This document shows, piece by piece, positions 1-20,000 of a DNA stretch of 20,000 nt. The notes beneath the pieces were generated by a model. The model worked only from the letters and a program-made list of their open reading frames with translations, was not told the origin of the DNA and did no database searches. A program made the translations under genes and the position numbers. Each line of letters opens with the position of its first letter. The first letter of the stretch is position 1. Origin of the DNA: Reclinomonas americana ATCC 50394 (lineage: Eukaryota); contig PS015110.1 in the NCBI GenBank assembly GCA_048213135.1, positions 101,368 to 121,367 of the forward strand, read 5' to 3'.

Positions 1-3000
1 ACTGCTCAGCGTCGTGGCCCCGGTCACCGCCACCGTTCCACCAAGCGTCACTGCGCCCGTGCCCGTGGTCAGCGTGTTCGTGCCCGGAATCGACACGTTA
101 CCGTTGAGCGTCGAGGCGCCGCCGACCGACAGCGAGCTGCTCAACGTGGTGGCACCGGCGGCGGTCAGAGTGCCACCGAGCGTGGTCGCCCCAGTGCCCA
201 CCGTAAACGTATTGGTGCCGGTCACCGACGTGTTGCCGTTAATGGTGGTCGCGCCCGTCACATTGGTGGTGCCGGTCAGCGACGTGGTGCCGTTGACCAC
301 AGTCAGATTGTTGCCAGCGGTGATGGTCACCGAGCCGGCAATGCTAGTGCCGCCGTTGAACGTGGCGAGACCCGTAAATGTCGAGGCGCCCGTCACGGCC
401 AGCGTGCCGCCAAGTGTTGTCGCACTGCCGACACCCGTCGTGAGGTTTCTCGTTGGCGAGAGCGTTACATCGCCGTTAAAGGTCGACGCGCCACCAAGAG
501 AGAACGGACCCGTGATGGTGGCGCCGCCGGCACTCACCGTCAGCGCGCCACCGAGCGTGGTGGTGCCCGAGTCGACCACCAGGTTGCCGGCGCCAAAGAG
601 ACGCACGTTGCTGTTGAAGGTCGCCGCGCCAGTGGTGTTTAGAGTGCCGCCGATCGAGGTGTTGCCGGCGGCGCTGAGCGTACCACCCAGCGTCGTCGCA
701 CCCGTGCCGACAGTGAACGTATTGGCGCCGGTCACCGATGTGTTGCCGTTCAAGGTGGTGGTGCCGGTGACCACAGAGTTGCCAGTCACTGTCGAGTTAC
801 CGGCCACAGACAGTGCGCCACTGACCGTGGTCAGGCCAGTGCCCGTCGTCAGCGTCGTGGCGCCCGTCAGTGTCGTGTTGCCAGAGAGCGTAGTGGCANN
901 NNNNNNNNNNNNNNNNNNNNNNNNNNNNNNNNNNNNNNNNNNNNNNNNNNNNNNNNNNNNNNNNNNNNNNNNNNNNNNNNNNNNNNNNNNNNNNNNNNNN
1001 NNNNNNNNNNNNNNNNNNNNNNNNNNNNNNNNNNNNNNNNNNNNNNNNNNNNNNNNNNNNNNNNNNNNNNNNNNNNNNNNNNNNNNNNNNNNNNNNNNNN
1101 NNNNNNNNNNNNNNNNNNNNNNNNNNNNNNNNNNNNNNNNNNNNNNNNNNNNNNNNNNNNNNNNNNNNNNNNNNNNNNNNNNNNNNNNNNNNNNNNNNNN
1201 NNNNNNNNNNNNNNNNNNNNNNNNNNNNNNNNNNNNNNNNNNNNNNNNNNNNNNNNNNNNNNNNNNNNNNNNNNNNNNNNNNNNNNNNNNNNNNNNNNNN
1301 NNNNNNNNNNNNNNNNNNNNNNNNNNNNNNNNNNNNNNNNNNNNNNNNNNNNNNNNNNNNNNNNNNNNNNNNNNNNNNNNNNNNNNNNNNNNNNNNNNNN
1401 NNNNNNNNNNNNNNNNNNNNNNNNNNNNNNNNNNNNNNNNNNNNNNNNNNNNNNNNNNNNNNNNNNNNNNNNNNNNNNNNNNNNNNNNNNNNNNNNNNNN
1501 NNNNNNNNNNNNNNNNNNNNNNNNNNNNNNNNNNNNNNNNNNNNNNNNNNNNNNNNNNNNNNNNNNNNNNNNNNNNNNNNNNNNNNNNNNNNNNNNNNNN
1601 NNNNNNNNNNNNNNNNNNNNNNNNNNNNNNNNNNNNNNNNNNNNNNNNNNNNNNNNNNNNNNNNNNNNNNNNNNNNNNNNNNNNNNNNNNNNNNNNNNNN
1701 NNNNNNNNNNNNNNNNNNNNNNNNNNNNNNNNNNNNNNNNNNNNNNNNNNNNNNNNNNNNNNNNNNNNNNNNNNNNNNNNNNNNCCACCGACACTGAGTG
1801 TGGACGAGAGGGTGGAGGCGCCGGCCACACTCAGCGTGCCGCCGAGCGTGGTCGCACCAGTGCCCACCGTCAGCGTGTTCGTGCCCGTAATGTTCACGTT
1901 GCCGTTGGTGTTGAGGGAGCCGTTCAGCGTCGTGGTGCCTGCCGCGGTCAGGTTGCCAGTCACGGTGGCGTTGCCGCCAATCGTGGCGTTGCCGCCGTTC
2001 AGCACCAAATTGCTGGTGCCCGTAAGCGTCACGTCGTTCGAGAACGTCGACACGCCACCCACCGACAGCGTACCGGCCAGCGTCGTCGTGCCCGTCACTG
2101 CAATGTTGCCGTTAAAGGTGGTGGTGGTTGGCGGCCCCATGCCCGCCAGAATCGTGAGACCGCCCGTAATCGTCACACCACTATTAAAGGTNNNNNNNNN
2201 NNNNNNNNNNNNNNNNNNNNNNNNNNNNNNNNNNNNNNNNNNNNNNNNNNNNNNNNNNNNNNNNNNNNNNNNNNNNNNNNNNNNNNNNNNNNNNNNNNNN
2301 NNNNNNNNNNNNNNNNNNNNNNNNNNNNNNNNNNNNNNNNNNNNNNNNNNNNNNNNNNNNNNNNNNNNNNNNNNNNNNNNNNNNNNNNNNNNNNNNNNNN
2401 NNNNNNNNNNNNNNNNNNNNNNNNNNNNNNNNNNNNNNNNNNNNNNNNNNNNNNNNNNNNNNNNNNNNNNNNNNNNNNNNNNNNNNNNNNNNNNNNNNNN
2501 NNNNNNNNNNNNNNNNNNNNNNNNNNNNNNNNNNNNNNNNNNNNNNNNNNNNNNNNNNNNNNNNNNNNNNNNNNNNNNNNNNNNNNNNNNNNNNNNNNNN
2601 NNNNNNNNNNNNNNNNNNNNNNNNNNNNNNNNNNNNNNNNNNNNNNNNNNNNNNNNNNNNNNNNNNNNNNNNNNNNNNNNNNNNNNNNNNNNNNNNNNNN
2701 NNNNNNNNNNNNNNNNNNNNNNNNNNNNNNNNNNNNNNNNNNNNNNNNNNNNNNNNNNNNNNNNNNNNNNNNNNNNNNNNNNNNNNNNNNNNNNNNNNNN
2801 NNNNNNNNNNNNNNNNNNNNNNNNNNNNNNNNNNNNNNNNNNNNNNNNNNNNNNNNNNNNNNAGCAGCACCAGTGGTGCTCAGCGTGCCAGTCAGCGCCG
2901 TGTTGCCTTGCACCAGCAGCGACGAGTTGAGTTGCGTGACGCCGCCCACCGTCAGGTTCGAGCTCGCATTCACCAGCGTGACTGAGCGGTAAAACAGGCC

Positions 3001-6000
3001 GTCACCCTGCGTCGTCAGTGCACCCGCCACTGTGGTGTCGCCAGCCACAGACAGCGAGCTGGAGAGCGTCGTCGCACCCGTCACCGACAGAGTATGCGCA
3101 TTGATAATGGACACGTCGCCGTCTACCGACAAGGAGTCCTTCATCGAGGTGGTGCTGTGGAATGTCGAGGCGCCCGTCACATCCAGCACACCGCCGAGTG
3201 TGGTCGTGCCCGTGTTGACCGTCAAGCTGGCCGCACCAATGAGTGACACATTGTCGTGCAACAGAGTCTTGCCGGTGACCTCCAGTCCGCCCGACATGGT
3301 GGTGTCGCCGGCGACAGAGAGCGTGGAGCCGAGTGAGGTGGTTCCAGAGACCACGGTCAAGTTGGCATTCGAGCTGACGGAAACGTCTTTCGTGAAATTG
3401 GAGAGTCCGCCCACCGACAGCGCGCCACCCAGCGAGGTGGTGCCACTGGTCACAACGAGCGGCACTCCGGCACTGAGCGTCACCTGTCCGTTGAATGTGG
3501 AAGTGCTTTGCGCCGTCAGCGCGCCCGACAGCGTCGTCGTGCCGGTGACACCGAGGGTGCCGCCCACCGACAGCACACCGCCAATGTTGACAGTGCGCGT
3601 CGGGTCGACCGTCACATTGTTCGAGAACGTCGACGTGCCGCTGACGGTCAGTGCTCCATTCGCCGCCAGCGTGCCCGCGACGGAAACAGACCCGCCAAAC
3701 GACGCTGCTCCCGTGCCGACGGCAAAGGTCTGTCCGTTGGCCACCGAGACGGCGCCACTGAAGAGCGAGCTGCCGGTCACACTCAGGCCGTTGGACAGGT
3801 TGCACGTACCGGTGACCAGCAGGTTCTTCACCGTGGTGGCTCCCATCAACACCGTCAGCGTGCCGGTGGTCACCGAAACGCTGCCGTCAAACTGCGCACT
3901 GCTGCCGACCGAGAGCGTCGACTGCATCTGTGCGGCACCGGCCACAACCAGAGGCCCACCCAGTGTCACTGTGCCGGTTCCGACAATAAGACCGTTGGAG
4001 CCAGCCACAGTCACGTCGGCGTTAAATGTCGACGGCGCACTGGCCGTCAGCGCACCGCCGAGAGTTGTGACACCCACCACTGACAGTGTGGTGGACATGA
4101 GCGCCGAACCAGTCACTGTCAGTGCGGCGCCGACCGCCATGTTGCCAGTGGTGGACGCAGCACCGGTCACCGTCAGGCCCGACGACAGACTCGTGTTGCC
4201 GGCGACAGTCAGTGTGCCACCAAACGAGGAGGTGCCAGAGACCACCGAAAAGGCGTTGTTGCTCAGCACCGTGACGGCACCACCAAACGAGGTGGCGCCA
4301 TTGGCCGACAGTGCACCCGCAAAAGTCGAGGTGCCAGTCACCGACAGCGTGCCCGTGACGGTGGCGTTGCCGCCAACCGCCAGCGCCGAAGTGCCGGTAA
4401 TGGTCACTGGCCCGCTGGCGGTGATCGCGCCAGTGGTGGCCGCGCCAGTGAGTGTCGTCGTGCCCGTCACGGCCAGCGCGCCGCCGAGTGTGGTCGGTCC
4501 CGACATGACCGTCAACGCCTTGCCCGTGTTGATGCTGACGTCGCTGTTGAAGAGCGACACTCCAGTCACCGTCAGTGTCGACTGCAGCTGCGTGGCACCA
4601 GTGACCGTCAATGCTCCGCCCAAGGTCGACGGCGTGCCGACACCCACAGAGAATGTGGTGCCCGCCGCCACGGTGGCCCCGCCATTAAAGGTGGCCATTC
4701 CGGTCGTCGCCAGCGTGCTACCCAGAGACGCCGCACCGGCCAGTGTCAGCGTGCCGTTGAGCGTGGTAGGCCCGGTGCCGACAGTAAAGGCCTTGGTGTC
4801 GGCCACAGAGACCGCCGACTGGAACAGCGACGCGCCGGCCACCGTCAGCGCACCACCCATGGTCGCCGTGCCGGACACCAGCAGGGTGCCGCCGAGCGAG
4901 GTGGCGGCCGTGGCCACGGTGAATCCGGCCGCGCCAAGAATCTGCACAGCGCCAGTCAAATTGGCGCCGGCCGTGGCCGAAAACAGTCCGGCCACCGACG
5001 CCGTGCCGGCCACCGTCAGGTTGCCTCCCAGCGTGGTGGCTCCGGTACCGACTTGCAGGTTGGCCGTGTTGGCCAACACCACATTGCTGGCAAACGAGGC
5101 CACACCTGTCACACCCACCGTTGAGGCAAACGTCGCGGCGCCCGCCACCGCCAACGACGAGCCGAGAGTTGTCGCCGAGTCGGTCACCGTCAGCGTGGCG
5201 CCCGTGGCCAGCGTCACACTACCTTGATGAAGCGTGGTAGATGCAGCGGTAAGTGCGCCACTCAGCAGCGTCGAGCCCGTCACACTCAGGGTGCCGCCGA
5301 GGCTGGTCGCCGCATCCGTGACTGTAAACTTGCGCGTCGTGCCAACGATCACGTCGCCACCCGCAAAGGTGACGGCGGCGTTCGTTGTCAGCACGCCGTT
5401 CAGCGTCGTGGTGCCGGCAACGGTGAGCGAGCCGCCAATCGCCGTCACGCCGGTGCCAACGGTGAGTGGTGTGGCGCTGTTGGCAATGGTCAAGGTGCCG
5501 GTCAGCGTTGTGTTGCCGCCGACGCTGAGCGACGAAGTGAGCGTGGTGGCGCCGGTCACCGCCAGCGTGGAGCCGAGCGATGTGGCACCGTTGACCACGG
5601 TCAGTGTGCGGCCCGTGGCCACTGTCACGTTCGTGTTCAAGGTGGCGGAGCCGCCACCCACCGACAGACCGGCAGTCAGCGTGGTGAGACCGTTCACCGT
5701 CAGCGAACCATTCATCGTCGTCGCACCGGTGCCGATGGTGACCGTCTGCGAGTCGGCCACCGAGAGGCCGGCATTCAGCGTGGCCAGTCCACCCACTGTC
5801 AGCGTTGACGTGAGCGACGTGGCACCGGTGACGCCCAGAGTGCCTCCGAGCACCGCAGGCGCGGTGGCCACCGTAAAGGTGGAGGTATTGCCGAGGATGG
5901 AGACGGTGTTGTTGAGGGTGGTGGCACCGTTGATGACGGCAGAACCAGAGAGCGTGCTCGCGCCGCCCACCGTCAGCGAACCGCCCAGGGCGGTGGCACC

Positions 6001-9000
6001 GCCGCCGGCAAGTGTCAGCGTGCTGCCGGCTCCAATCGTCACACTGCCGCTGAGGGTGGAAGCACCGGTCACCGAAATGGTGCTGTTGAAGGTGGAGGCG
6101 CCCGACACGGACAGCGTGCCGCCGAGTGCGACGGCGCCCGTGCCGACTGTCAGCGTGTTGGTGCCTGAGATGGTCACCGAGTTCGAGAACACGCTGGCGG
6201 CTGTCGCCGAGAGCGCACCGTTGAGTGTGGTCACGCCGCTCACCGTCAGAGAGCCGCCGAGAGTGGTGGCGGCCGAGGTGACCGCCAAGGCCGCACCCGC
6301 CGGCAACGCGATACCACCGGCAAAGGTGGCCAGTCCGCCCACCGAGAGCGTGGAGCTCATGGTGGTGGCGCCAGTGACGGCTAGACTGCCACCCAGCGAT
6401 GTGGCCGCATTCGCCACCGTCAGCGAGCTGCCCATGGCCAGCGATACGTTGCCGGCAAAAGTGGCCAGACCCGACGCACTCAGCGTGCCATTGACAACAA
6501 TCGAACCTCCCATGGCCACCGTCAGCGACTTATTCGCCGCCAGTGTCACATTGTCGTTCAGTGTCGAGGTGCCAGTCACCACCAGCGTGGAGCTGAGGGT
6601 GGTGGCGCCTGTCACCGTCACTACGCCTCCAAACGACGAGGCGCCGTTGCCGACAATCAATGCAGTGCCATTGGCCACCGTCACCGTGTTCTGGAAGAGC
6701 GCGGTTCCGGCAGCCGTCAGCGCGCCACTCAGCGTGGTCACACCCACCACCGACACGGCACCATTCACCGTCGTCAGACCCGTGCCTGTGCTCAACTTGG
6801 CCGCACCCGTCAGCGTCACGTCGCTGGCAAACGTGCTGGCACCGCCCACCGACAATGTCGACGTGAGCGCTGTGGCACCTGAGACCGACAGTGTGCCGCC
6901 GAGATTGACTGCAGTCAGGGCGCCAGTGGTCATCGTCTGGCCCATGGAGAGCGTCAGCGAGTTGTTGAAAATGCCGGCGCCGTTCACCGTCAGCGCAGAG
7001 AGCACCGTCGGACCGGTGGACACGGTCAGCGTCTTGCCGTTGCTGACATTGACGTCGCCGGAGAAGGTGGCGGTGGATGCCACCGCCAGCGTGTCGCCAA
7101 TGGTTGTCGGCACACCGGCCAGCACGCTAAACGAGGTGCCGCCAGTGACCTGCAGGCCGCCGGCCGTCGTGGCCAGTCCAGTGACCATGACGGTCGACGA
7201 GAGAGTCGTGGCGCCCGTCACACCGAGAGTGCCACCCAGCGATGTGGCGCCACCGACCACCACCAAATTGTTGGTGCCGAGCACAGTCAACGGACCACCG
7301 CCAACATTGGCGCCAGCCGTGGCCGACAGGAATCCCGACAACGTCGTCACGCCCGTCACAGTCAGCGTGCCCGACAGTGAGGCTGCACCACCGCCTACCA
7401 TCGTAAACGTGCGAGCATTAATCAGCGTCACATTGCCGTCAATGGTGGTCGCCGCCAGCAAGCTGACAGCACCGCTGAGGGTGGTGGCACCCGTCACCGC
7501 CAGCGTGCCACCGAGAATCGTGGCACCCGTGCCCACTGTCAGCGGCGTGGCGCCCGACAGAGTCACACTGGTGGCAAACGACGCGGCTCCAGTGACTTGC
7601 ACCGCGCCGGCAAAGGCGGCCGTGGAAACGTTGGAGGTCAGCGACAAGTTGCCGCCCAGAGTCACCGCGCCCGTGCCCACTGTCAGCGTGGAAGCGCCGG
7701 AGAGCGTAAGGTTACCGTTGAGAGTGGTGCCGCCAGTAATAGCAATCCCACCCAGCAGTGTCGTCAGGCCTGTCACCGACAGTGTGCCGCCAAGCGTGGT
7801 TGCGCCCGTGCCGACGGTAAATGTCTGCAAGTTGGCCAGCGACACCGCACCGTTGAATGTGGTGGTGCCGGTGACCACGAGCGTGCCGCCGAGAGCAGTG
7901 GCTCCCGACACCACCGTCAGCGACTTGCCGTTGATGACACTGACGGCGCTGTCAAAGATCGATGTGGCGCCAGTCACACTCAGTAGTCCAGTCAGCGTCG
8001 TGGTGCCGCTGACCAGCAGCGTGCCACCGAGCGACGTCGCTCCGTTGCCGACAGTGAGAGTAAACGTGTTGGCCACGCTCACATTGCCGTTCAGCGTGGT
8101 GGCGCCGCCTACAGTCAGCGTCGTGGCAAGGCTCGTGGCGCCAGAGACCACCAGCGTGGAGCCGAGGGAGGTGGCGCCGCCCGCCACCGTCAACGTGTTG
8201 ACGCCAGCCACCAGCAGGTTGCCGTTGAGGGTCGTCAGTCCCGTGACACCGAGTGTGCCAGCCAGAGTGGTGTTGCCGGTGACTGCCAGTGTGCCACCAA
8301 GTGTTGTGGCACCGGTGCCAACCGTGAGCTTGGTGCTCGCGCCCGACACGGAAACATCGTTGCTGAATGTGGAGACGCCAGTGACACCCAGCGTGCCGCC
8401 GAGAGTCGTGGCGCCAGTGGTGACCACCAGCGGTTTGCCGGCCGTCACCGTCACATCGCCAGAGAAAGTGGAGACGCCAGCGACGCCCAGTGTGCCGCCA
8501 ATGGTGGTGGCACCGCCGTTGACGGAAAAGTTGCGCACGCCCGTAATGGCCACATCGTTGTTGAAGGTGGAGGTGCCGGCGACCACCAGCGTGCCGTTCA
8601 AGGCTGTGTTACCGGTGGTGGTCAGCGAGCCGCCGAGCGTCGTCGCTCCCGACACCACCGAGAGTGTGCGCGTGGCCTCCAAGGTCACATTGCCATCAAA
8701 GGTGGACGCCGCGTTGGCCGAGAGAACACCATTGAGTGTGGTGGCACCCGCCACCGCGAGCGTGCTATTCAACGTCGTCACACCAGCCACCGTCAGTGTC
8801 GACGCGCCCGTCAGTGCCACATTGTTGGCAAACGTGGTGAGGCCGCCAACCGAGAGAGTGCTCAGCAACTGCGTCGCGCCGGTCACCGTCAGCGGTCCAC
8901 CCAGTGACACCAGGCCGGTGCTGGTGGTGACGGTTCCGTTGAGTGCCGTGGCTCCCGTCACCGTCAGCGTGCCCTGCGCCGCCACATTGCCCGTCAGCGT

Positions 9001-12000
9001 GCTCGCTCCCGTCACTGCCAGTGTGCCGCCGAGCGAGGTGGCCCCGCCGACCACCGTGAACGGACTCGTGCCCTGCACTGTGGTCGGGCCATTGAACTCC
9101 GCAGCCGACACGGCGTTGTTGGCAAAGATTGTGCCGGCCGAGGTGAGCGTCTGGCCCACCTGCACGGCCTGTTGGAAGTTGGCCAGGCCGCCAGTGACAG
9201 TCAGTGTCTTGGAGTTGGTGACCACAACGTCGCCGTTAAACGTCGTCGTGCCTTGCACCGACAGCGTCGACGCCAGAGCCGTCGCGCCGGTCACATTCAG
9301 CGTGCCGCCAAGAGTAGAAACTCCCGTGCCGACATTGAAGGCGTTGGCGCCGGTCACCGACAGTGTGCCGTTGACAGTGGTGGCCGCCGACACGGCCAGA
9401 GTGCCGCCGAGCACCGTGGCACCAGTGCCGACGGTGAATGTATTGGTTCCGGTGATGGAGACATTGTTGTTGAAGGTGGTGGCACCGTTGGCCGTCAGCG
9501 GACCCGTCAGAGTCGAAGCGCCCGTCACATTCAGAGCACCGCCCAGCGACGTGATGCCGTTGCCGACGGTGAGGGGGACGCCGGCGGCCAGAGTCACGGC
9601 CGAACCGAAACTGGTGGCGCCGGCCACCGCCAGCGAGCCACCCAGTGTGGTGGCGCCGGTGCCGACAGTGAACGGACTGGTGCTGGTCACCGACAGCGCG
9701 CCATTGATGGTGGCACCGCCGTTGGCGGTAAGGAGGCCAGTCAGCGTGCTCGTGCCGCCAATCGTCAGCGTGTTGGTGCCACTGACAGCCACGTTGCCAC
9801 TGAAAGTGCTGGCGCCGCTGACCGACAGCGTGCCACCAAGAGTGGTGGCACCCGTCGCGACGGCAAAGTTGGCCGGCGACGCCACCGTGACATTGTCGCT
9901 GAGTGTGGTGGTGCCGGAGACGGCGAGTGTGCCGTTGAGAATGGTGGGACCGGCCGTGCTGACACCAATGTTGCCGGAGAATACGAGATTGCCGACGACA
10001 GTGAGACTGCCATTGACGGTGGTCGACGTGGCCGGAATGATCACGGTGCCGCCATTGGTGCCGAGCGACACTTGCGTGCCCGACGCCGACAGCACACTCG
10101 AGGTGCCGACCACGGCGTCGAGCTTGGTGTTGCCCTTGATGAAGATCTCCGGGGCCACCAGCGCCATTTGCGTGCGCGTGCCACCGGATCCAACCTCGCC
10201 CAGCGTGAGCGAAATGTTGCCGAGGGCGCCGCTCGTGCGCGTAATGGTGATGACATCGGAGGCGGGGTTGATGACGACGCTGCCGGCCTGGTTGGCGGCA
10301 TTGGTGGCCGTCAGCGTAATCGACGACTTGGACGACACACTCATCACATCGGCGAGAATCGATGCCGACGCGGCATTCGCCGTGCCGTTGGCCGACACCG
10401 TGAAGGCGCCGGTGGCCAGCACATTGTGGTTGGTGACACGCGCTGTCAAGTCAATGTTACCGGCGACCATGCCGGCACCGATGTTGAAGACGGTGGTGCC
10501 GAGTTGATTGATGACAGTGAAAGTGGTGGCCGTCACCGAATGCGTGTTTTGCACCACCGCCGTGTACGACGAGCCGGCCACCGACACCGCAGTGCCATTC
10601 GGCGCCACGTACTGGCCGAGACGGAGTGTGCCGAGCTCGGAGCCGAGGGTGAGGGTGGACGGGGTGATGCTGTGCGTGGTGCCCGACATGGTCACCGTCG
10701 GTGCCACCAACGAGAAGAGCGACGACGGCGCCACATCCAACGTCGTACTCGTCATGCGTGTGTATGGACCTGTGATGCGCAAGCTCGGTGCACCCGACGT
10801 GCCTGGCGTCAAATCCGACTCCACGACCACGGTCGATCCTTGCATGGTGACCGAGGGGCCTGAAAGTGCGCCAATCGCCACTTGGGTCGTGGTCGCCGCC
10901 GCAATGCCCATGACGATGCGGTTGCCGGCCAGCGTCAGCTGTGTGGTGTTGACGCTCGAGCCGACAATGACCTTCGGGCCGATAACCTGCAGCAAGCCAG
11001 CCGTCGTCTGTCCGAGATCGACCAAGTACTGCTGTGCGGCTTGCGTGGCCGCCAACTGTGCACTCGTGTCGAGAAGCACCAGTTGCGAGGTGGCCGCCAG
11101 CACTGGATTCACGCTCAGCGTCACGCCGCCCGAGGTGGCACCCGACGACTTGATGGTCGCCTGTCGCGCCAGCAACGAAAACGTGTCGATCTCAGTGGCC
11201 GTCGGCGTCTGCACCGACACGGTGCCAGTGGCCTGCAGCGCCAGCGAGTACGACTTGAGGGTGATGCTGTTGGTGTTGATCGACGGCACCGTCTGCACCG
11301 TAATGGTGCTCGTGGCCGGTTCGCCCACCACGCTTCCATCGCCGCCGATAAGCATGGTGGCGGCCTTGGTGCTCCACGCACCCGTCACCAGCGCCTGCAG
11401 CGACACGCCACGCGTCGTAATGGTGGTCAACGTCTGACCGAGGGTCAGCGAACCCGACGGACGCAGCAGCAGGTTGGTGGGCGTAAAGTCGTACGACGGT
11501 CCCACAAACGAGGCCGTGCCACTGGCCAGCGTCATGGTGAAGGGACCGGTGTTGAGCGCAAACGATGTCGCCGTCGTCATGGTCAGCGTCGGCAACGTAA
11601 TCGTGTTGTTCAGCGCCACATCCGAGGCCGACAGCGCAAATTGCTTGCTGGCCACCGTCACCACCGCGTTCGCCGCATTGCCGAGGTTGACGGCCGTCGG
11701 CAGCGCCGCACCGGAACTGCCGAGATTGATGGTCGACGCGGCCGCGGCAGTGAACACACCGCCGGCAACCGTCGCGTCCATGGTAATCAGAGGCGCCTTG
11801 GCCGTCAGCATCTTGGTGGCGGCGCGCGTGTCCAGATCCAGTGACACCACTTGCGTCTCGTCAAACAGCTGCATGCGCTGCGTGGTCATGGAGAAGGTGG
11901 CCGGCGTCGCCGCTGCACCCTGCTTGACAACCACCGACGAGGTGCCGGTCTCGTTGAACGACGTCAACGCCATGGCCTCGGCGTTGAGCGTAAAGGAGCG

Positions 12001-13315
12001 CGACTGTGCGCCACCCGAAGTGCCCGTCAGCAAGTGCGCATTGGCCGCGTACGTGGTCATGTTGAAGGTGGTGGCGGTGATGGTGTTGGACACGTTTGCC
12101 GCCGCCGTCGTGAGCGCGATCGATGTGGTGGTGGCCGTCGTACCAATCGTCACCGTTGGGGCGGTGANNNNNNNNNNNNNNNNNNNNCCAGGTGGTGCCG
12201 GAGAGGGTGGCCGTCGGGGCGGTGAGCGTCAGCGAGGTGCCAATGTTCATCGTCACGGTGTTGGAGGCGAGAGTGAACACGGGGAGCGTGAACAAGTTGG
12301 TGCCGACGGCCGACCACGCGGTGATGGTAAATGTGCCGGCGTCGGCGGTCAACGAGGTGAGCAGGTTGTTGCCGAGGACAATGCTGGTGGTGAGCGAGGC
12401 CGTGTTGCCGGCATTCTTGTTCTTGCCAATCTCCACCGCCAAGCCATCCAGGGTGACGCCGTTCGTGCCATTGGCGCGAATACGAGAGCACTCGACGCGC
12501 GCCGGGAACGTGGGATCATTGTCCAGCGTCATGGCGCACAGAGACGAGGTGCCGCGCGACATGACCACCGTGCTCGGTGTGCCGGCCGTCACCACCAGTC
12601 CCGACACATTGGCGCCAGAGCCAACTTGCATCGAGGCTGCGACGGTGGCCAGCGCCGTGTATGTGCCGGCATTCAGCGCCACGGTCGTCACCGGCGAAGC
12701 ATTCGTGCCGATGCGCAGCTGCGTCGTGGCCAACAAGTCAATGTTCGCCGCCGTCGTGGTCACCAGGGTCGAAGATGTCAGCGCAATGTTCGTGTTGACA
12801 ATGGCGCCAGCGGAGCCAATCGTCACCGTCGGAGACGCCAGTGTCACTGAGGTGCCATAGGTGGCCGACAGCGTGGCGGCCGCCAGAGTCATGCTCGGCG
12901 TTGCCGAAGTGCCAATGCTGGTCGCACCCGACGGAGTCACCACAAACGTGGAGACGGTGGCAGAAAAGGCGGGTGAACCGCTGACAGTGAGCGACGTGCT
13001 GGTGGCCAGGTTGAGCACCGGCGTCGTCACCGTCGACTGTGTGGTGGCCGCCACAAGGAACCGATTGACCGAATAGTTAATGTCGGAGCTCGCTGTCACG
13101 TTGATGTTGGCGGCGCGCTCTGTCAGCGTGGAGAGTGCAGCACTACCAATCGACACTTGCACGCCGGTGGTGGCGCCAAGAGTGAGCGAGCCCGCCGCAC
13201 CCGTATCGACCAGCACTGAAGCAAGCGCCGTCAGCGTCGCCGCATTGTTGAGGCTCAGGGAGCCGAGGTCCAGCTGACCGCCGATCGAGCCGCCAAAGCC
13301 GGCACCGGCGCGGAT
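1..13315 (-). CDS. Exon 16: giant exon (IRAGAGFGG... to window edge ...[14 protein letters not shown]), interrupted only by assembly gaps
   Basis: Acceptor TGCAG at 13316 (phase 0). Sequenced segments 12188-13315, 2863-12167, 1785-2191 and 1-898 each read in the same protein style. Frame changes occur only across N gaps, so introns hidden in the gaps cannot be excluded. Confidence 0.85.
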
Positions 13316-16058
13316 CTGCACGAAAGGGAAAAAGGGGGGTGGTTGAGAGGGTCATCACCAATGGGGGTAAAGAAAGAAACGTGGCGCGCGCTACGCACCG
13401 CCAGTGGAGCACCGATACCGACGGCGGTGCGGTCGGGGCGCTGAATGGTGAGCGCGTTTGGCGAGGCGGCGGCACCGAGATTCGACTGCAGCAGCAGCAC
13501 GGAGCCGGTGACGTTGATGGCCGACGCCGAGGGAATGCTGATGCTGCCGTTGAACTGGGCGCAGGGGTGGGGGAGCGCGATGAGAATCATCACTCAAAGA
13601 GGAAGCGACATTGGTGGGCACAAAACTGTCGAGGAGGCCGAGTACACCACAAAGGAACCGGCGGCCGTGCCGAGTTCCACCGTGGCAGCCGACGAGACAC
13701 CGAGCTGCAGATTGCCCGACGACGTGGCGCCAGAGCCGGCATCGAGTGCACTGCATTGTTATCGAAAAGTGAGGGGAAGAAGGGGAGGTCATCAGGCCTC
13801 AAGAGACACGCAACAGGTTGCCACCCGTAGCGCCAGCAGTGTTCTGACCGCGAATAAAGGTGCTCGAGGCAGCCACAGCGCCGGTCTGCGGATCGCGTTG
13901 CAAGATGAATGATTTGTTGGTGGCTCCAGCTCCGTCGCGACCGAGCCACACGATGGATGAGGCGGCGCCGACGCTGATGCCTGGGGTGGGAAGGGAGAAG
14001 GCAAGGGAGAAGGGGGGAAGGGGGAAGGGTGAGGAGAGAGGGAAGGACGAGGAAAAGGAGGAGGGAAGGACGGGGAGAAAGAGGTGGAAAGGACAAGGAG
14101 TGAGGGGAGAGAGTGAGGACAGAGTGACGACGAGGACGAGGAGGAGGAGAGAAGGATAAGGAGGAGAACAGTGCGATAAACTCTCTTCAAAATCAACATT
14201 CAATGGGACAACACTTGTGGTTTCAGGAACGTCACAATGAGTGCGAGAGCACCAAATGACACGGAGCAACAATACCAGAGAGCGAGAGTGTGTGTGAGAG
14301 AGAGTCAGAGAGATAGGCAAACAGGCACATGCACACACACGCATGCACACATATACGCACACACACACACATGCACGCACACGCGCGCACACACACGCAC
14401 ACAGACAGACGCACATGCACACGCACATGCACGCACGCACATACACACACGCACACACACACACTACACGCACACTACATGTCTTCGACCTGCAGCTGCC
14501 ACCAACAAACAACAAGCACAATAGCTCTTCCCTCAACAAAGTGTCCCCTCACAACAAACCTGGTTCGAGACGCATGTACGTCTGTGCCTGCAACTCCAGC
14601 TGCGTCGCCGACGACAGCAGCGCCAGAGTGAGGCCGCCGGCCAACGTAGTCGTGCCGTCGACTTGCAGGCTGGAGAAGAATCGCGAGCCTTGCAAGACGT
14701 TGAGCACGCCGTTGACGGTCGTGGTGACACCAGCAACGGCAATGGAGACCGAAGTGGCCGTCGGACCCATGGTGAGTGACTGAGTAGTGCGGCGACAATC
14801 AGCAAATGACAACCAGGGTCAATACGCGAAATTGAAAACTCAACTGCACTACGCGGATCGAGAGTCATGGCTCCATTGCTCTGCAGCAGAGCGGTCGAGG
14901 CCGACGACACCAACGAGAGTGCACCGGCCGCCGTGACGGAGAATGTACTCTCGGCGGTCATGGCTGACGCGCCGGCGTCAATGGCAAACTGTGAGCCGAC
15001 ACGAGGTGAGTTTGCATGATTTGCTTTGCATGACAGGGAAATCCTGTCGAGATTCACGAACCGCGCCACGAGAACCGGCGGTTCCGGTGGACAGCGTGAG
15101 CGAACCACACGTGGAGACACCCATGCCATTGGTGTGCACGGCGGAGATAATGCGCAGGGCAGGCGGTGCGAGACCGTCAAAGACAGACGCGTGCTGGATC
15201 GTGGTGTCCGTGCCCTGTCGACCCACGCGCAGAATATTATCGGTGGAGCGAATGGGACTCGAGCTGCCGTTCAGATTGACAGCGCCAGTGGCTGTGATGG
15301 ACGAGCTGGTGATGGTCACGGCAACGGCATTCGTACCGCTGCCAATGGACACTGAACTCGTGTTGGCATCACCAATCATGACCGCGCCGTTGGCGGCAGC
15401 CACATTGCCAGCACCCGCACGCAGCAGCCTGACATTGTTCATCAGGAAAAAGAATGCAGAGTAACAGTAAAGGGGGGAAGAAAGGGCCACGCAACAAGTT
15501 GCCGCCTGCGCCGGCAGTCGACTGCTGTCCGGCGACACTGAACGGTAGCGACGCTGCCGCAGTGGTCGGTGCAATCGAGTAGCTGGAGGCCGGCGTGCCG
15601 CCAAGGACCACCGCACCAGAGAACGGAGTCAGCGTCAACGAGCCGGCACTGGTGCGCAGAACCGGCGAGAAGATTTGGGTGGTGAAGGTGGCGTCTTGTG
15701 CCACCGACAACTGCAAAGGTGGGCAAAAGGGAGAGAGGGGTGAGGTCGACATGAATGCAGACACGCACGCGTCACCTTCAGCCACGCAACTGTGCCCTGT
15801 ACAGTAGTTGGTACACCCGCTTGTGAAATTGTGACACCGGCCGAGCTAGACGATGACGCTCCGGTGGCGATGTTGACAATGGTGGCGGTCGTGTCAACAC
15901 GATTGCCATCGAGGGTGAGAGTGGTGCCCGACACGGTCACCGTACTGGTGCCGCGCGCCAAGGCGCCAATCATGATTGAGCTGGTCAGACCGGCTCCGGT
16001 GCTGATGCGCAGATTGATGGCTGGCGAACTGCAAAGCAGTGAGTGAGGAGAGGTAAGG

Positions 16059-16119
<61 letters not shown>

Positions 16120-19100
16120 CGACGACGACGACGACGACGACGTACGTACGTACGTACGTACGTACGTAACGAACGAACGTACGTAACGTAACGTACGGTA
16201 CGGTACGTACGTCGTACGACGACGACGACGTACGTACGTCGGTCGACCGGACCGACGANNNNNNNNNNNNNNNNNNNNGAGTAGACGAGACGAGAGTACG
16301 GTAGAGAGAGAGAGAGGACGAGAGTAGAGAGAGAGAGAGAAAGAAAGACAGACGACAGAGAGATGTAGCACGAGCGCGAGAGAGAGAGAGAGAGTTGACG
16401 CAACGTGACAGCCATGTCAGCCGTTGTAATCACAAACGGCGTCAAATTGGACGGAGTGCCTTGCAGCACCAGTGTGCTGGCCGCCGAAGCCAATGGACCT
16501 GTCAGCGTCAGCATGCTGGAGAACAGAGCGTTGCCAGCAACCTGTTGCACGATAGACGGTGAGCGAGGACAGTACATGCACGGACTAAAACGTGTGAATC
16601 GAACCGTCAGAGTTGACTGCGCCGTCAGCGAGCCGACGACGGTGGTGGCCAGTGGTTGAAGAAGCAGCGATGTAGACGTCAAGCGGCCAATTGTCACCTG
16701 AGCAAGCACCACTAGCATCAGTGACACTCGTTCATATTCAGTGCAGGGTGGAAGATGTGGTGACGCACCGTTGATGCCGCAATGGTGCCCACGTTGACAT
16801 TGCCTTGCGTCAGCGCACCAGTGCCGGCATCGAGGAAGCTGCAGGAAGCATGGCGTGAGATAACGAAAAGCACATAGCTTGCACAACAATATCGCACGCA
16901 ACATATCACCACCCGCCGAGCCGACAGCAGTCGATGATTGGGCATACACCGACAGAGCCTGACCGCTGGCGGTGGTGCTGGGCGTACGCGTGATCTCCAT
17001 GGTGGCTTGCGCGCCCGTGAGCGAGATCTGTCACGCCGATCGATGAGAAGACATGACATCATGACTCACCAACTCACTCGCACACGCAAACATACGGCGA
17101 AACAGTCACTGATTCGCATACTTGCGATAACTGCTTGAGCACACGCACACAGACTCTAATCTCCATTTTGGCTTCCTTCTCTCTCGCCTCCCTCTCGTCA
17201 CACCATCCGCCCCTCGCCCTCCTCCCACTATCTGCCGTCCCTCGCTTTCATCCCACAATCATCCCTTCATCCCTTCTTGTCCGCTCTCTTCCCTCTTTTC
17301 GCCCTCACCCCGCCCTCTTCCACTCCCCTCGCTTTCACTCCCTCACACACTCTGCCCCTTCCCCTCCCCCACACTCACCCTGCCATTGGCGGGGCGCAAG
17401 TCGAGTGCATTGCTACTCGAGACCACAATTGGCGTCGTCAGCTGCGTGGCGGCCACAATGCTATTGGCCGTCAGTGTGGTGCCGTTCAGTGTCACATCCT
17501 GCGTCACCACCAGCTGGCCGAGAACGCGCGTGACGAGACCGGCGCCACTCAGACGCACTTCACCCGTGGCGGCGTTGATCACCACGTTCGAGGTGGCCGA
17601 GGTGATGCTCATGGCTCCACTCGCGTCGGCGGTCATGGAGAGCGCCCGCAACACAATCGAATTGGTGCGATACGCGGCCGCTCCCAAGTACAAGTTACCG
17701 TCGGCAGTGGCCGGCAGCGTGGACTTGCCGGCCTCGATCGACAAATCGCCACCAATGCCCGGCACATCCACACGCTTGATGGTGAACGGGCTGCCGATAG
17801 TCGTGTCGCCAATGTCAAAGACATTGGTCGTCACCAGCAGACGGCCGTTGCCGGCCGACGGCGCCAGCGTGAGTGAACCATTCATCGTGGTGGCGCCGGT
17901 TACCGCCAGTGTGCCGGCCGACAAGGCGCTGTTGACAATGACAGAGGCCGAGGCGATGGTGGTGGTCTGGCCAGCCAAACCGGAGAGACCAATGCTAATG
18001 TTGCCGCGCTGCGTGCCAATCTTGACGTTGCCGCTGGTGGTGGAGCCGAGGCCGCCGTCAATGACCACATCGCCGCCAGAGCCGGTGGTGGTCGGCTGAC
18101 CAATGATGTTGGTCTGCGCACCGACGCCGACCGCCAGCGTCGGCCGGGTCAACGTGAAAGCCGACGCGGTGGAGCCGAGAAGCACACGTTGCGAGGCAGG
18201 CTGCAGCGTGAGGTCATCCGTCACCAGCGACGTGGTGATCAACGTCGTCTGCAAGCCGCCCACGGCACGTGTCTGTCCCGTGACTTGCAGCACGCCGTTC
18301 GGAACGGCGGCGAGACCAGCACTCAGCTCCAGGTAGGAGACGCCAGCGGAGCGGAAGACAACGCGGGAGGTGGCGGCTGTGTGGAGACAAGTGAGATGTA
18401 GAGAAGGAAAAAGAGATACAACCACACTGTAACTCCACCGCCTACGCAACAGTCGCGGAACATGCCGGTGGTGCCATCGCCAGAGAACGAGAAGCCGACA
18501 TTGTCGGTCAGCGTCAATCCAGCGAATGCTTGGACGGCGCCAAACACCTCCAAGCGAGGACCCGGCGAGGCCCATGTGGTGCCTACCTGCACCAGACTCT
18601 GTCCGGGCGAGCCAGTCTTGCGCACCGTCAGATCACCACCGCTGCCAATCAGCACGCCGCCGGCAAAGGCGTCGGCCGAGTTGATGCGCAGTGTACTGGT
18701 CATGCCCGACACGGAGCGATCCAATGTCAGCAGCGGCGTGGTGGCACCAAGCAGGAACTGGTCGCCGTCAATGCCCAGACTCGTGGTGATAATGACCGGG
18801 TTCGTCGACAATGTCGGTGCGTAGATACGACGCACACCGCCAATCCAGATGCCGACGCCAGTGGATGGGAGGGCTGCGTGGGGGGACGGTCGTGAACAAA
18901 GGGTGCATGCGCTTCGGAAGAGAGACGAATCATCGGCACACACACACGCAACACGAAGCACTCGAAAACGACGGAAGAAAGAAGGAAAGAGCGGGGGTGG
19001 AGAAGGAGAAGCACGCGTGCGTGTACAAAGCGATAGACTGGGAATGTCACAAACCAGGTGACGAAAGACGGAGAGAGAGAGAGAGAGAGAGAGAGAAACA

Positions 19101-19807
19101 CGAAACCCACAAGAACGCAATCAACAAGAGCTGTAATCACCATCGCACACACCATCTCTCTCCCTAGTCAGTGCACTCACCATCAGCAAACAAGCCAGTC
19201 ACCGAGTCCGTGTCAAACGCAAATCCCAAATCAATGGTGGCCGCGCTGGAGGGTGGCGTGCCACGTGCGGCACGGACCGAGCCCAGCGAGCGCAGCGATC
19301 CAGAGCCTGTCGCGTACGACGAGGCACCGGAGCCAAACACGGCACGCGCGGCATTGGCCAGATTGCCTCCGCGGCCAATGTAGGCGTCGTTGCTGCCAAT
19401 CACCACACCGTCGACAAAGCTGCCGCCCGAGTTCACCAGCAACAGGCTCTGCAGAGAGACGCCGGAACGCTCCAGCGCCACACCCGTGCCGACCGAGACT
19501 TGCGTGCCACCCGACACCAGCGAACCGAATGTGGTAATGAGGCCAGTCGGCGACACGCGCAGGCGCTCCGACACGGCACCGCCTTGCGACAAGAAGAGCT
19601 TCAGGTCGGCGGTCACACCCGGCGACAGCTCACCCGTGTGGATGAACGAGACGAGCGGAGCGCCGGCCACCGGAGTGCCCAGACGGAACGTGTCGCCGCG
19701 AATGTCCAGGCGTCCGTACACCGACAGTGGGTTGTTGGTGGTGCCGTCGTCGGGGATCTCGAAGCGCAGGGCACCGTTGCTGTACATCGAGACGGTGTTG
19801 CCGGTGG
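1..19807 (-). CDS. Partial giant multi-exon gene (16 exons seen, no start or stop in window) encoding a T/G/V/A/S-rich repetitive beta-helical fibre/adhesin-like protein, about 5,800 aa in the window. Model: complement(join(<1..13315,13399..13554,13627..13750,13815..13980,14560..14779,14845..14988,15062..15428,15496..15710,15791..16028,16405..16541,16605..16697,16769..16838,16903..17027,17379..18376,18451..18873,19181..19807))
   Basis: Minus-strand ORF pieces of the same amino-acid style are separated by GT...CAG segments with pyrimidine tracts and CTCAC/CTGAT/CTCAT branch-like motifs. Donor and acceptor phases match at all 15 junctions when traced by hand. Function is inferred from composition and motifs only. 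Confidence 0.88.
899..1784. other. Assembly gap (886 N)
   Basis: N run. Confidence 0.99.
2192..2862. other. Assembly gap (671 N)
   Basis: N run. Confidence 0.99.
12168..12187. other. Assembly gap (20 N, probably a placeholder size)
   Basis: N run; the reading frame differs on the two sides. Confidence 0.97.
13399..13554 (-). CDS. Exon 15 ([11 protein letters not shown]...GIGAPLA)
   Basis: Acceptor CCCAG at 13555; donor G|GTGCGT at 13398; phase 0/0. Confidence 0.87.
13627..13750 (-). CDS. Exon 14 ([41 protein letters not shown]); not represented in the ORF track
   Basis: Acceptor TGCAG at 13751 (phase 2); hand translation continues the GGNLALDAGSG motif; donor A|GTTTTGT at 13626 (phase 0) is the least certain boundary. 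Confidence 0.75.
13815..13980 (-). CDS. Exon 13 ([14 protein letters not shown]...GATGGNL)
   Basis: Acceptor CCCAG at 13981 after a long pyrimidine tract (phase 1); donor T|GTTGCGT at 13814 (phase 2). Confidence 0.87.
13981..14559 (-). other. 579-bp intron with a degenerate (CA/TG)n microsatellite (about 14326-14478) and a pyrimidine tract of about 190 bp (13985-14170)
   Basis: GTTTGT...CCCAG boundaries; low-complexity content. Confidence 0.85.
14560..14779 (-). CDS. Exon 12 ([10 protein letters not shown]...YMRLEP)
   Basis: Acceptor CTCAG at 14780 (phase 0); donor CAG|GTTTGT at 14559 (phase 1). Confidence 0.85.
14845..14988 (-). CDS. Exon 11 ([10 protein letters not shown]...MTLDPRSA)
   Basis: Acceptor CACAG at 14989; donor A|GTTGAGT at 14844 is the nearby phase-0 GT (the adjacent GTAGTG and GTGCAG are phase 1). 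Confidence 0.8.
15062..15428 (-). CDS. Exon 10 ([14 protein letters not shown]...TAGSRGA)
   Basis: Acceptor GTCAG at 15429 (phase 2); donor G|GTTCGT at 15061 (phase 0). Confidence 0.82.
15496..15710 (-). CDS. Exon 9 (LSVAQDATF...AGAGGNL)
   Basis: Acceptor TGCAG at 15711 (phase 0); donor T|GTTGCGT at 15495 (phase 2). Confidence 0.85.
15791..16028 (-). CDS. Exon 8 ([11 protein letters not shown]...PTTVQGT)
   Basis: Acceptor TGCAG at 16029 (phase 2); donor A|GTTGCGT at 15790 (phase 0). Confidence 0.82.
16061..16115. repeat. Perfect (GA)n microsatellite, about 27 units, inside intron 16029-16404
   Basis: Directly visible. Confidence 0.97.
16259..16278. other. Assembly gap (20 N, probably a placeholder size) within an intron
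   Basis: N run between degraded (GA)n tracts. Confidence 0.97.
16405..16541 (-). CDS. Exon 7 (VAGNALFSS...TTADMAVT)
   Basis: Acceptor AACAG at 16542 (phase 0); donor C|GTTGCGT at 16404 (phase 2), followed directly by (CT)n. Confidence 0.85.
16605..16697 (-). CDS. Exon 6 ([10 protein letters not shown]...AQSTLT)
   Basis: Acceptor CTCAG at 16698; donor G|GTTCGA at 16604; phase 0/0. Confidence 0.8.
16769..16838 (-). CDS. Exon 5 ([23 protein letters not shown])
   Basis: Acceptor TGCAG at 16839 (phase 2); donor G|GTGCGT at 16768 (phase 0). Confidence 0.85.
16903..17027 (-). CDS. Exon 4 ([14 protein letters not shown]...SAGGDI)
   Basis: Acceptor GACAG at 17028 (phase 0); donor T|GTTGCGT at 16902 (phase 2), which rebuilds the motif GGDIFLDAG. 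Confidence 0.85.
17160..17372. repeat. C/T-rich low-complexity tract (purine-rich on the transcript strand) in the 5' part of intron 17028-17378
   Basis: Directly visible. Confidence 0.85.
17379..18376 (-). CDS. Exon 3 ([12 protein letters not shown]...DLRPANGR)
   Basis: Acceptor CACAG at 18377 (phase 1); donor G|GTGAGT at 17378 (phase 0); frame of ORF 17343..18575. Confidence 0.9.
18451..18873 (-). CDS. Exon 2 ([13 protein letters not shown]...[14 protein letters not shown])
   Basis: Acceptor CGCAG at 18874 (phase 1); donor T|GTTGCGT at 18450 (phase 1). Other phase-1 donors at 18438 (GTGGAG) and 18465 (GCATGT) cannot be excluded. Confidence 0.8.
19071..19096. repeat. (GA)n microsatellite inside intron 18874-19180
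   Basis: Directly visible. Confidence 0.95.
19181..19807 (-). CDS. Exon 1 in window ([18 protein letters not shown]...[15 protein letters not shown])
   Basis: Acceptor TTGCAG at 19808 after a long pyrimidine tract; donor G|GTGAGT at 19180; phase 1/1; frame of ORF 19164..19787. Confidence 0.9.
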
Positions 19808-20000
19808 CTGCAAGGAGGGAAAGGAGGGGGTGAGTGAGAGGGAGGGAGGGAAGGGGGAGGGAGGGAGGAGGGAATCAAGAAAGAGAGAAAGAAGCGAATG
19901 AGAAGGAAGGGAAAGAGACGGAAGAGAGAGAAGAAAGGGATCGAAGGAGGAGGGAGGGAACGAGAGCAAGGGAGCGAAAGAACAAGAGAGAGACATGAGA
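19808..20000 (-). other. 3' part of a spliceosomal intron (polypyrimidine tract, CTCAC branch-like motif, TTGCAG acceptor)
   Basis: The plus strand is almost pure G/A and the segment abuts exon 1 at ctgca. Confidence 0.85.

Follow-up and report, generated by a model that had tools for sequence, protein, structure and literature searches.

Locus and Classes of 5′ Splice Sites

The stretch of DNA analysed here, referred to below as the window, comprises 20,000 nt of contig PS015110.1 (positions 101,368 to 121,367 of the forward strand) in assembly GCA_048213135.1 of Reclinomonas americana ATCC 50394. It has a G+C content of about 63% and is filled by a single giant gene on the minus strand; all coordinates are those of the window, and the gene reads from high to low numbers. 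Between 19808 and 12188, the minus-strand open-frame map shows repeated shifts of the reading frame, and a model with 15 GT-AG introns joins the exons of this interval into a stop-free frame of 5232 nt (1744 codons). The 5′ splice sites (donors) of these introns fall into two classes, ordinary and shifted, which share one signal and differ in where the cut lies relative to it.

A preliminary description of this DNA had proposed that eight of the 15 donors are of the shifted type, and the present analysis confirms all eight on the minus strand. These are GTTGCGT at 18450, 16902, 16404, 15790, 15495, and 13814, GTTGAGT at 14844, and GTTTTGT at 13626. The seven ordinary donors are GTGAGT (19180 and 17378), GTGCGT (16768 and 13398), GTTCGA (16604), GTTCGT (15061), and GTTTGT (14559), which bears out the remark that each shifted donor equals an ordinary donor of the same gene with one additional T.

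The two classes also differ in the last exon base (position -1), a feature that the preliminary description did not use and that is new here. All 7 ordinary donors have a G here, whereas the 8 shifted ones never do (Fisher P = 1.55e-4) and carry T, T, C, A, T, A, T, and A instead, in order from 18450 to 13626. Because of this distribution, the +1 G of the shifted donors is seen to replace the -1 G of the ordinary ones. When aligned on this G, all 15 donors read G-[G/T]-T-[G/T]-N-G-T, except for a single A in place of the last T. By column, the alignment contains G in 15 of 15 donors, G in 7 and T in 8, T in 15, G in 11 and T in 4, C in 10, A in 3 and T in 2, G in 15, T in 14 and A in 1, and, beyond the heptamer, G in 8 of 15. 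Both donor classes thus represent one signal, G-K-T-K-N-G-T, with the difference at the second base, and the commonest form of this signal is G-K-T-G-C-G-T-(G). All 8 shifted introns are in frame when the cut precedes the GT. A cut in the equivalent register would add one base at 8 mRNA junctions, and it is therefore the cut position that moves relative to the signal.

The heptamer GTTGCGT is not more frequent in the window than expected by chance (8 copies versus 5.7 expected, with 8 or more copies in 49 of 200 shuffles). The coding strand carries 7 of the 8 copies, six as intron starts and one inside intron 1. No copy is found in the 15,837 nt of exonic sequence, where 0.3 would be expected from synonymous shuffles. 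In the interval from 12188 to 19808, GT is followed by TGCGT at 7 of 588 GT dinucleotides. Given the base composition of the introns, the probability that at least 6 of 15 donors read GTTGCGT is 1.9e-13, and it is still 8e-9 (at least 4 of 13) if the three paralogous introns described below are counted once. Furthermore, 8 of 8 shifted donors are in phase with an independently chosen acceptor, for which the chance value is (1/3)^8, or 1.5e-4. Depletion of donor-like heptamers from the exons is not significant, with 5 copies of GTTNNGT versus 8.5 expected (P = 0.14) and 16 copies of GGTNNGT versus 18.9.

The seventh coding-strand GTTGCGT, at 18952 in intron 1, is found just upstream of an ATG and represents either an alternative donor or a chance occurrence. 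Two sequences that resemble ordinary donors and are preceded by a G, namely, G/GTGCGTGG and G/GTGAGTGC (the slash marks the potential cut), are located at minus-strand positions 11381 and 537 in the long exon and are apparently unused. The donor heptamer alone is therefore insufficient to define an intron.

Placement of the Junctions

For each AG acceptor, all in-phase GT or GC donors were enumerated. No GT other than the shifted one is in phase at 13814 and 14844. According to the preliminary description, neighboring GTs do not fit the phase; this holds for the nearest canonical-looking GTs (e.g., GTGCGA at 16897) but not for every GT within about 50 nt. Specifically, in-phase rival donors are GTGGAG at 18438 for the 18450 donor, GTTTGT at 16437 for 16404, and GTGACG at 15775 for 15790. 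The GC located 3 nt downstream is phase-equivalent at 6 of 6 GTTGCGT sites.

Comparison of exon B of the gene with protein representatives yields nine short fragments of metagenomic open reading frames (ORFs), including P0012, P0017, P0018, and P0020, which were used as relatives. The motif GG[DNS]-x3-[DENR][AG]G is found uninterrupted in 12 copies, 10 of them in 8 of the 9 relatives and 2 in exon B of the window, and its spacer consists of three residues in all 12, never of two, four, or five. As the preliminary description had pointed out, splicing at 16902, 15495, and 13814 rebuilds this motif, giving GGDIFLDAG, GGNLLLRAG, and GGNLALDAG, respectively. Only the GT reading results in the three-residue spacer, so these three junctions are exact and the downstream GC is excluded there. 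The same three introns interrupt the motif at the same position and in phase 2, in agreement with the earlier suspicion that they are paralogous. They share the heptamer and the 3′ signals and nothing else, which shows that the whole heptamer is conserved.

The other five shifted junctions are supported by phase, composition, and weak homology, and three of the five have an in-phase rival donor. At 18450, comparison with P0012, which is intronless there, sets the acceptor at 18377 and leaves the interval from 18456 to 18438 for the donor. At 15790, the alignments of P0017 and P0020 run through the junction free of gaps, and that of P0012 shows a one-residue gap. At 13626, weak support comes from the gap-free alignment of P0018 across the junction, with the alignment of P0017 gapped nearby.

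In the place of intron 2, P0012 carries the extra residues LGGTGGVT, and the start of the window's own intron, translated in frame, encodes CCVGGGVT. Intron 2 may be former coding sequence turned into an intron, or the similarity may be due to chance in a Gly-rich stretch. The ORF of P0012 ends right after GSGGDV, which is the position of the three paralogous GTTGCGT introns of the window. P0012 probably contains an intron there, the start of which gives the stop codon (GTGA, GTAA, or GTAG), in which case its donor would not be GTTG. Within copies of the GG[DN]xx[LI][DER][AG]G module (13316-15061 and 16839-16902), introns are found at three places within 6 nt. The intron starting at 15061 lies before the fourth codon (phase 0, G/GTTCGT), those at 16902, 15495, and 13814 lie 2 nt later (phase 2, GTTGCGT), and that at 13398 lies 4 nt later still (phase 0, G/GTGCGT); the two copies in exon B are intronless. 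This spread looks like sliding, or repeated gain, of introns at one spot.

Features of the Gene and Its Introns

The coordinates of the gene and its introns are listed in Table 1. More than 5,200 codons are visible in the window, and after the intron-rich first third the gene is intronless for at least 12 kb. Its long exon runs for 3101 codons without a stop (12165 to 2863), followed by another 405 and 897 nt. Four assembly gaps are present in the window, at 899-1784, 2192-2862, 12168-12187, and 16259-16278; the last of these lies between unusual ACGT and TCG repeats, which resemble assembly junk. Opposite the giant exon, the plus strand has an open frame of 1758 codons (5231-10507); rather than a gene, this is most likely a side effect of the high GC content and repetitiveness of the coding strand.

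Table 1. Features of the giant gene in the 20,000-nt window (a slash in the donor column marks the cut)
Feature	Positions	Strand	Length (nt)	Donor	Class	Phase	Remarks
Giant gene	1..19808	minus					15,837 nt of open coding sequence visible; runs off both window ends
Intron-rich 5′ third of the giant gene	19808-12188	minus					15 introns in 7.6 kb
Long exon of the giant gene	12165 down to 1	minus					Single open frame, broken solely by assembly gaps
Further upstream intron, 3′ part	19809..20000	minus					CTCAC, pyrimidine tract, and CAG; runs off window end
Intron 1	18874..19180	minus	307	G/GTGAGT	ordinary		Internal GTTGCGT at 18952
Intron 2	18377..18450	minus	74	T/GTTGCGT	shifted	1	
Intron 3	17028..17378	minus	351	G/GTGAGT	ordinary		P0018 alignment crosses junction gap-free
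Intron 4	16839..16902	minus	64	T/GTTGCGT	shifted	2	Within GGD-IF-LDAG
Intron 5	16698..16768	minus	71	G/GTGCGT	ordinary		
Intron 6	16542..16604	minus	63	G/GTTCGA	counted as ordinary		
Intron 7	16029..16404	minus	376 as assembled	C/GTTGCGT	shifted	2	Contains gap 16259-16278
Intron 8	15711..15790	minus	80	A/GTTGCGT	shifted	0	
Intron 9	15429..15495	minus	67	T/GTTGCGT	shifted	2	Within GGN-LL-LRAG
Intron 10	14989..15061	minus	73	G/GTTCGT	ordinary	0	
Intron 11	14780..14844	minus	65	A/GTTGAGT	shifted	0	
Intron 12	13981..14559	minus	579	G/GTTTGT	ordinary		Filled with GT/GC and CT microsatellites
Intron 13	13751..13814	minus	64	T/GTTGCGT	shifted	2	Within GGN-LA-LDAG
Intron 14	13555..13626	minus	72	A/GTTTTGT	shifted	0	
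Intron 15	13316..13398	minus	83	G/GTGCGT	ordinary	0	

All 15 introns start with GT and end with AG, and in all of them a pyrimidine tract precedes the CAG acceptor. Inspection of the 11 short introns by eye, with no model fitted, identifies a CTCAC, CTGAT, CTCAT, or CTCAA element about 14 to 31 nt before the AG. Thus, the sequence has the features of U2-type GT-AG introns, namely, the termini, a branch-like element with a pyrimidine tract, and a reading frame that is restored upon intron removal. None of the 15 donors resembles the U12-type donor, whose motif is of the RTATCCTT type. The 3′ signals look alike in both donor classes, which points to a single spliceosome serving both. Four introns (13981-14559, 16029-16404, 17028-17378, and 18874-19180) are long owing to microsatellites only, i.e., (CT)n, (GT/GC)n, and G-rich runs, and the remaining eleven are 63 to 83 nt in length. 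The length of intron 6 is a multiple of three, and it contains no in-frame stop; it is read as an intron because of its splice signals and because the read-through peptide would contain two Cys residues, which are rare in this protein.

Repeat modules make up the encoded protein, in which Thr, Ser, Ala, Gly, Val, and Leu are abundant; Cys and Trp occur only once each in 3101 residues. A Pfam scan of five exon pieces detects no families. The full-length protein is beyond the length range of the homology searches, which were run with its parts. The giant exon retrieves 11 distant low-complexity matches, the best of them 35% identical and one named as Tribonema minus, and none of these 11 matches the intron-rich part. 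For exon B, a search at similar lengths gives no match, and one among longer proteins gives a single bacterial match. Scans of metagenomes, genome contigs, and viral contigs for related DNA produced no match. In the protein atlas, the neighbors of the first exon (19182-19808) are phage tail fibre-like (score 0.92), and those of exon B point weakly to Chlorophyta; both are leads only. The predicted structure of exon B has a mean predicted local distance difference test (pLDDT) value of 42, which is too low for use.

Proposed Recognition of the Shifted Donors by U1

In the usual view, the 5′ splice site is nominated by pairing with U1 small nuclear RNA (snRNA), and the cut is fixed by U6, U5, and Prp8. 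For each donor, base pairs were counted with the canonical 5′ end of U1, taken from PMC4856993. In the shifted class, the +1 register beats the canonical register at 7 of 8 donors, with one tie; in the ordinary class, the canonical register wins at 6 of 7, also with one tie. The shifted U1 pairing considered in the preliminary description is therefore supported both by the missing -1 G and by the pair counts, which assume a canonical U1. The same description envisaged a modified U1 or U6 or variant snRNAs; a modified snRNA is unnecessary to explain the data. At the gathering thresholds, Rfam gives no matches in the 20-kb window, which contains no snRNA gene.

A simple mechanism might account for both classes. 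All 15 would be ordinary U2-type GT-AG introns removed by one spliceosome, with the heptamer G-[G/T]-T-[G/T]-N-G-T as their 5′ signal and the 5′ end of U1 snRNA as its presumed reader. Where the second base is G (the G/GTGCGT type), the cut would fall after the first G, in the usual register. Where it is T (/GTTGCGT), the only available GT starts at the first G, and the cut would fall one base further upstream. U1 would then sit one position off the cleavage site, forming the pairs +1G-C9, +3U-A7, +6G-C4, and +7U-A3, and the exact cut would be set later, at the GU, by U6, U5, and Prp8.

The pattern at -1 bears on the geometry of this helix. In a bulged helix, C9 would stay free to pair with a -1 G, whereas in a shifted helix it would be taken by the +1 G. 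Absence of the -1 G from the shifted class thus favors a shifted over a bulged helix.

On the sequence data, the observed donors are real and probably constitute a shifted-register class. That they are read by U1 in the shifted register and cut at the true GU is the explanation towards which we lean, if only by a little. Several points weigh against it. At register positions 3 and 4, G-C is more frequent in shifted (6 of 8) than in ordinary donors (2 of 7); this excess is not significant (P = 0.13), and canonical U1 pairing fails to explain it. The duplexes that RNAduplex gives for unmodified U1 and the shifted sites are weak (+0.5 to -5.7 kcal/mol), and the pairing argument itself presumes that this organism has a canonical U1. 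The junctions were placed from the reading frame, splice signals, and sequence homology, and homology fixes exactly 3 of the 8 shifted ones, all of them paralogous. At 18450, P0012 has 8 residues more than the spliced model, with 18438 as an alternative donor; at 15790, P0012 (aligned to model residues 830-976) would align without gaps if the GC were used; and at 16404, the in-phase GTTTGT lies 33 nt upstream, with no homology to support the modelled junction. Finally, all of the evidence comes from one gene.

Alternative Explanations

The donors could be real but peculiar to this repeat gene, having spread with the duplication of its modules and being rare elsewhere. Three of the 8 share one position within a repeated module, the N-terminal region consists of paralogous modules, and one gene was examined. 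However, the eight donors occupy six non-homologous positions, and their introns share only splice signals. Inspection of the 15 introns by eye for introners or mobile introns reveals no shared sequence beyond those signals. Nor are there flanking direct repeats that would indicate target-site duplications: the best direct repeat across the intron ends has a shuffle P of at least 0.085 at 15 of 15 introns. A signal that works at six independent places would point to common machinery that could be used anywhere, which makes confinement to this gene somewhat doubtful.

According to another explanation, a co-evolved or second U1 complementary to GUUGCGU reads the GTT donors in the normal register. 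There is a precedent in Entamoeba, where GUUUGU(U) donors co-vary with a U1 that has ACAAAC instead of ACUUAC, and a U1 candidate from Mastigamoeba carries ACGUAC (bioRxiv 10.1101/2022.06.08.495308). Such a U1 might also explain why six of the eight shifted donors are identical, as their uniformity at +4 and +5 is left unexplained by the canonical U1. Nevertheless, the same gene has seven donors in the other register, both classes align to one consensus, and the difference at -1 is that expected of a shift. In addition, lineages with GTGCGT-type donors (Mamiellales and Thecamonas) are described as retaining the standard U1 pairing sequence (bioRxiv 10.1101/2022.06.08.495308). A co-evolved U1 is thus considered unlikely.

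Mis-modelling of several of the five junctions that lack an exact homology fix would lower the true share of shifted donors to 3 to 5 of 15. The candidates are 18438, 16437, 15775, and 13650 or 13647, all of them in phase, and the first of these receives some support from the 8 additional residues of P0012. Their use would add stretches with Cys, Trp, or Lys residues (CCVG at 18438 and VAWLK at 15775) to a protein that is poor in Cys and Trp. No alternative has the G at register position 5 and the T at position 6 that characterize the modelled donors (all 15, except for one A at position 6). Moreover, GTGGAGT at 18438 is itself a donor of the one-extra-base type, and 14844 and 13814 have no other in-phase GT. 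We therefore regard this explanation, too, as improbable.

Tandem donors of the GYNGYN type, with the GC 3 nt downstream acting as the donor or alternating with the GT and adding one codon, are a poorer fit and appear very unlikely. GTTGCG does conform to GYNGYN, the GC keeps the phase at every GTTGCGT site, the P0012 alignment at 15790 becomes gap-free with one extra residue, and GTNGCN tandem donors exist, some of them used at both sites (PMC1779574). However, the GC reading results in a four-residue spacer at 16902, 15495, and 13814, which is seen in 0 of 12 uninterrupted copies of the motif. It leaves GTTGAGT and GTTTTGT, which are both outside the GYNGYN pattern, unexplained and would need an invariant exonic GTT before each intron, whereas the exon ends vary under the GT reading. 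Finally, overcalling of a T homopolymer that turned GTGCGT into GTTGCGT would be invisible to the frame test at +3 and might be suspected in a gapped assembly with low-complexity junk beside one gap, but eight errors at the same donor position are not credible and would not explain the non-G pattern at -1, so that an artefact of this kind has a negligible chance of being the cause.

Possible Extent and Significance of the Shifted Class

Recognition of the shifted donors by U1, with cleavage at the true GU, might extend beyond this gene. Genome-wide use of the shifted class is plausible from the one gene seen here. A stronger proposal, that the +1-shifted register is the main class of 5′ splice sites in this genome, serving a third to a half of its introns with either an unchanged U1 or a pair of U1 variants, is put forward tentatively and may well turn out to be wrong.

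To our knowledge, nomination and cutting nearly always coincide in the organisms studied so far, and the few sites at which they are uncoupled have been proved one by one. If the shifted class were common throughout the genome, donor recognition and cutting would routinely occur one base apart, which would provide a natural system for studying what determines the cleavage site once U1 has left. With about half of the donors uncoupled, there would be thousands of natural test cases, governed by a clean rule in which the cut follows the first G of G-G-T and precedes that of G-T-T. In this lineage, many exon ends would then be missed or wrongly placed by gene finders trained on GTRNGT. Should the class be limited to this gene, the pattern at -1 still offers a simple sequence test for distinguishing shifted from bulged helices.

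Comparison with Known Systems

Among the matches listed in full-text literature searches, none describes the GTTGCGT/GUUGCGU heptamer as a donor. Tandem GYNGYN donors include GTNGCN, to which 856 of 165,295 human donors (0.52%) belong (Hiller et al. 2006, PMC1779574). GTTGCG fits GTNGCN, but here it accounts for 6 of 15 donors, and the downstream GC is excluded at three of these sites.

The register-aligned consensus of the present gene corresponds to the atypical one reported for Mamiellophyceae, a group of green algae. The donor of Ostreococcus lucimarinus is reported as GTGCGTG (PMC2483917), that of Micromonas as AG/GTGCGT, with an NCTGAC branch sequence 43 to 52 nt from the acceptor (PMC3879977), and GYGCGY donors are described together with a standard U1 (bioRxiv 10.1101/2022.06.08.495308). 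The last source also reports GUGCGC as the donor of Mastigamoeba, for which a G+C content of 60.7% is given elsewhere (PMC8136499). The aligned consensus of the present gene, G/GTGCGTG, is likewise characterized by -1 G, +4 C, and strict CAG acceptors. In contrast to Micromonas, its branch-like motif is located about 14 to 31 nt from the acceptor, and positions +3 and +4 are looser than in Mamiellophyceae (GA, TC, and TT are found). The passages on donors in these sources make no mention of a GTT class, a point on which the supplementary donor logos may bear.

Entamoeba has one uniform class, with GUUUGU in 87.9 to 89.5% of donors, in an AT-rich, intron-poor genome (bioRxiv 10.1101/2022.06.08.495308). 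Like Entamoeba donors, most donors here (11 of 15) have U at +3, a U at +7 is conserved, and the idea that snRNA and donor change together applies to both. Unlike in Entamoeba, two registers coexist in one gene that is GC-rich and intron-rich.

Bulged registers can be drawn for the shifted donors as well: GTTGCGT may be written as GT-GCGT, with the U at +3 (or +2) bulged and an equal number of pairs. Such bulged-nucleotide registers were reportedly described by Roca et al. in 2012. They are also treated by Tan et al. 2016 (PMC4856993), where bulge and asymmetric-loop registers are given as validated for 1.5% of 201,541 human 5′ splice sites. The difference is that a bulge leaves C9 to a -1 G, which the shifted class never has.

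A further parallel is with human shifted-register sites, in which, as would be the case here judging from the sequence, all U1 pairs are moved by one and the cut is made at the true GU. As far as is known, there are only a few dozen human sites of this kind. They were reportedly described by Roca and Krainer in 2009 (NSMB), and recognition in the shifted register with cleavage at the true GU is reported as established for a few of them (PMC4856993 and PMC9311317). Three of the eight sites in the present gene have CA before the GU (ACA/GTT or GCA/GTT), similar to the ACA/GU... oligonucleotide in PMC4856993. In contrast to the rarity of such sites in humans, where the shifted core is AAGU, the R. 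americana gene has 8 among 15 donors, with GCGT or GAGT as the shifted core.

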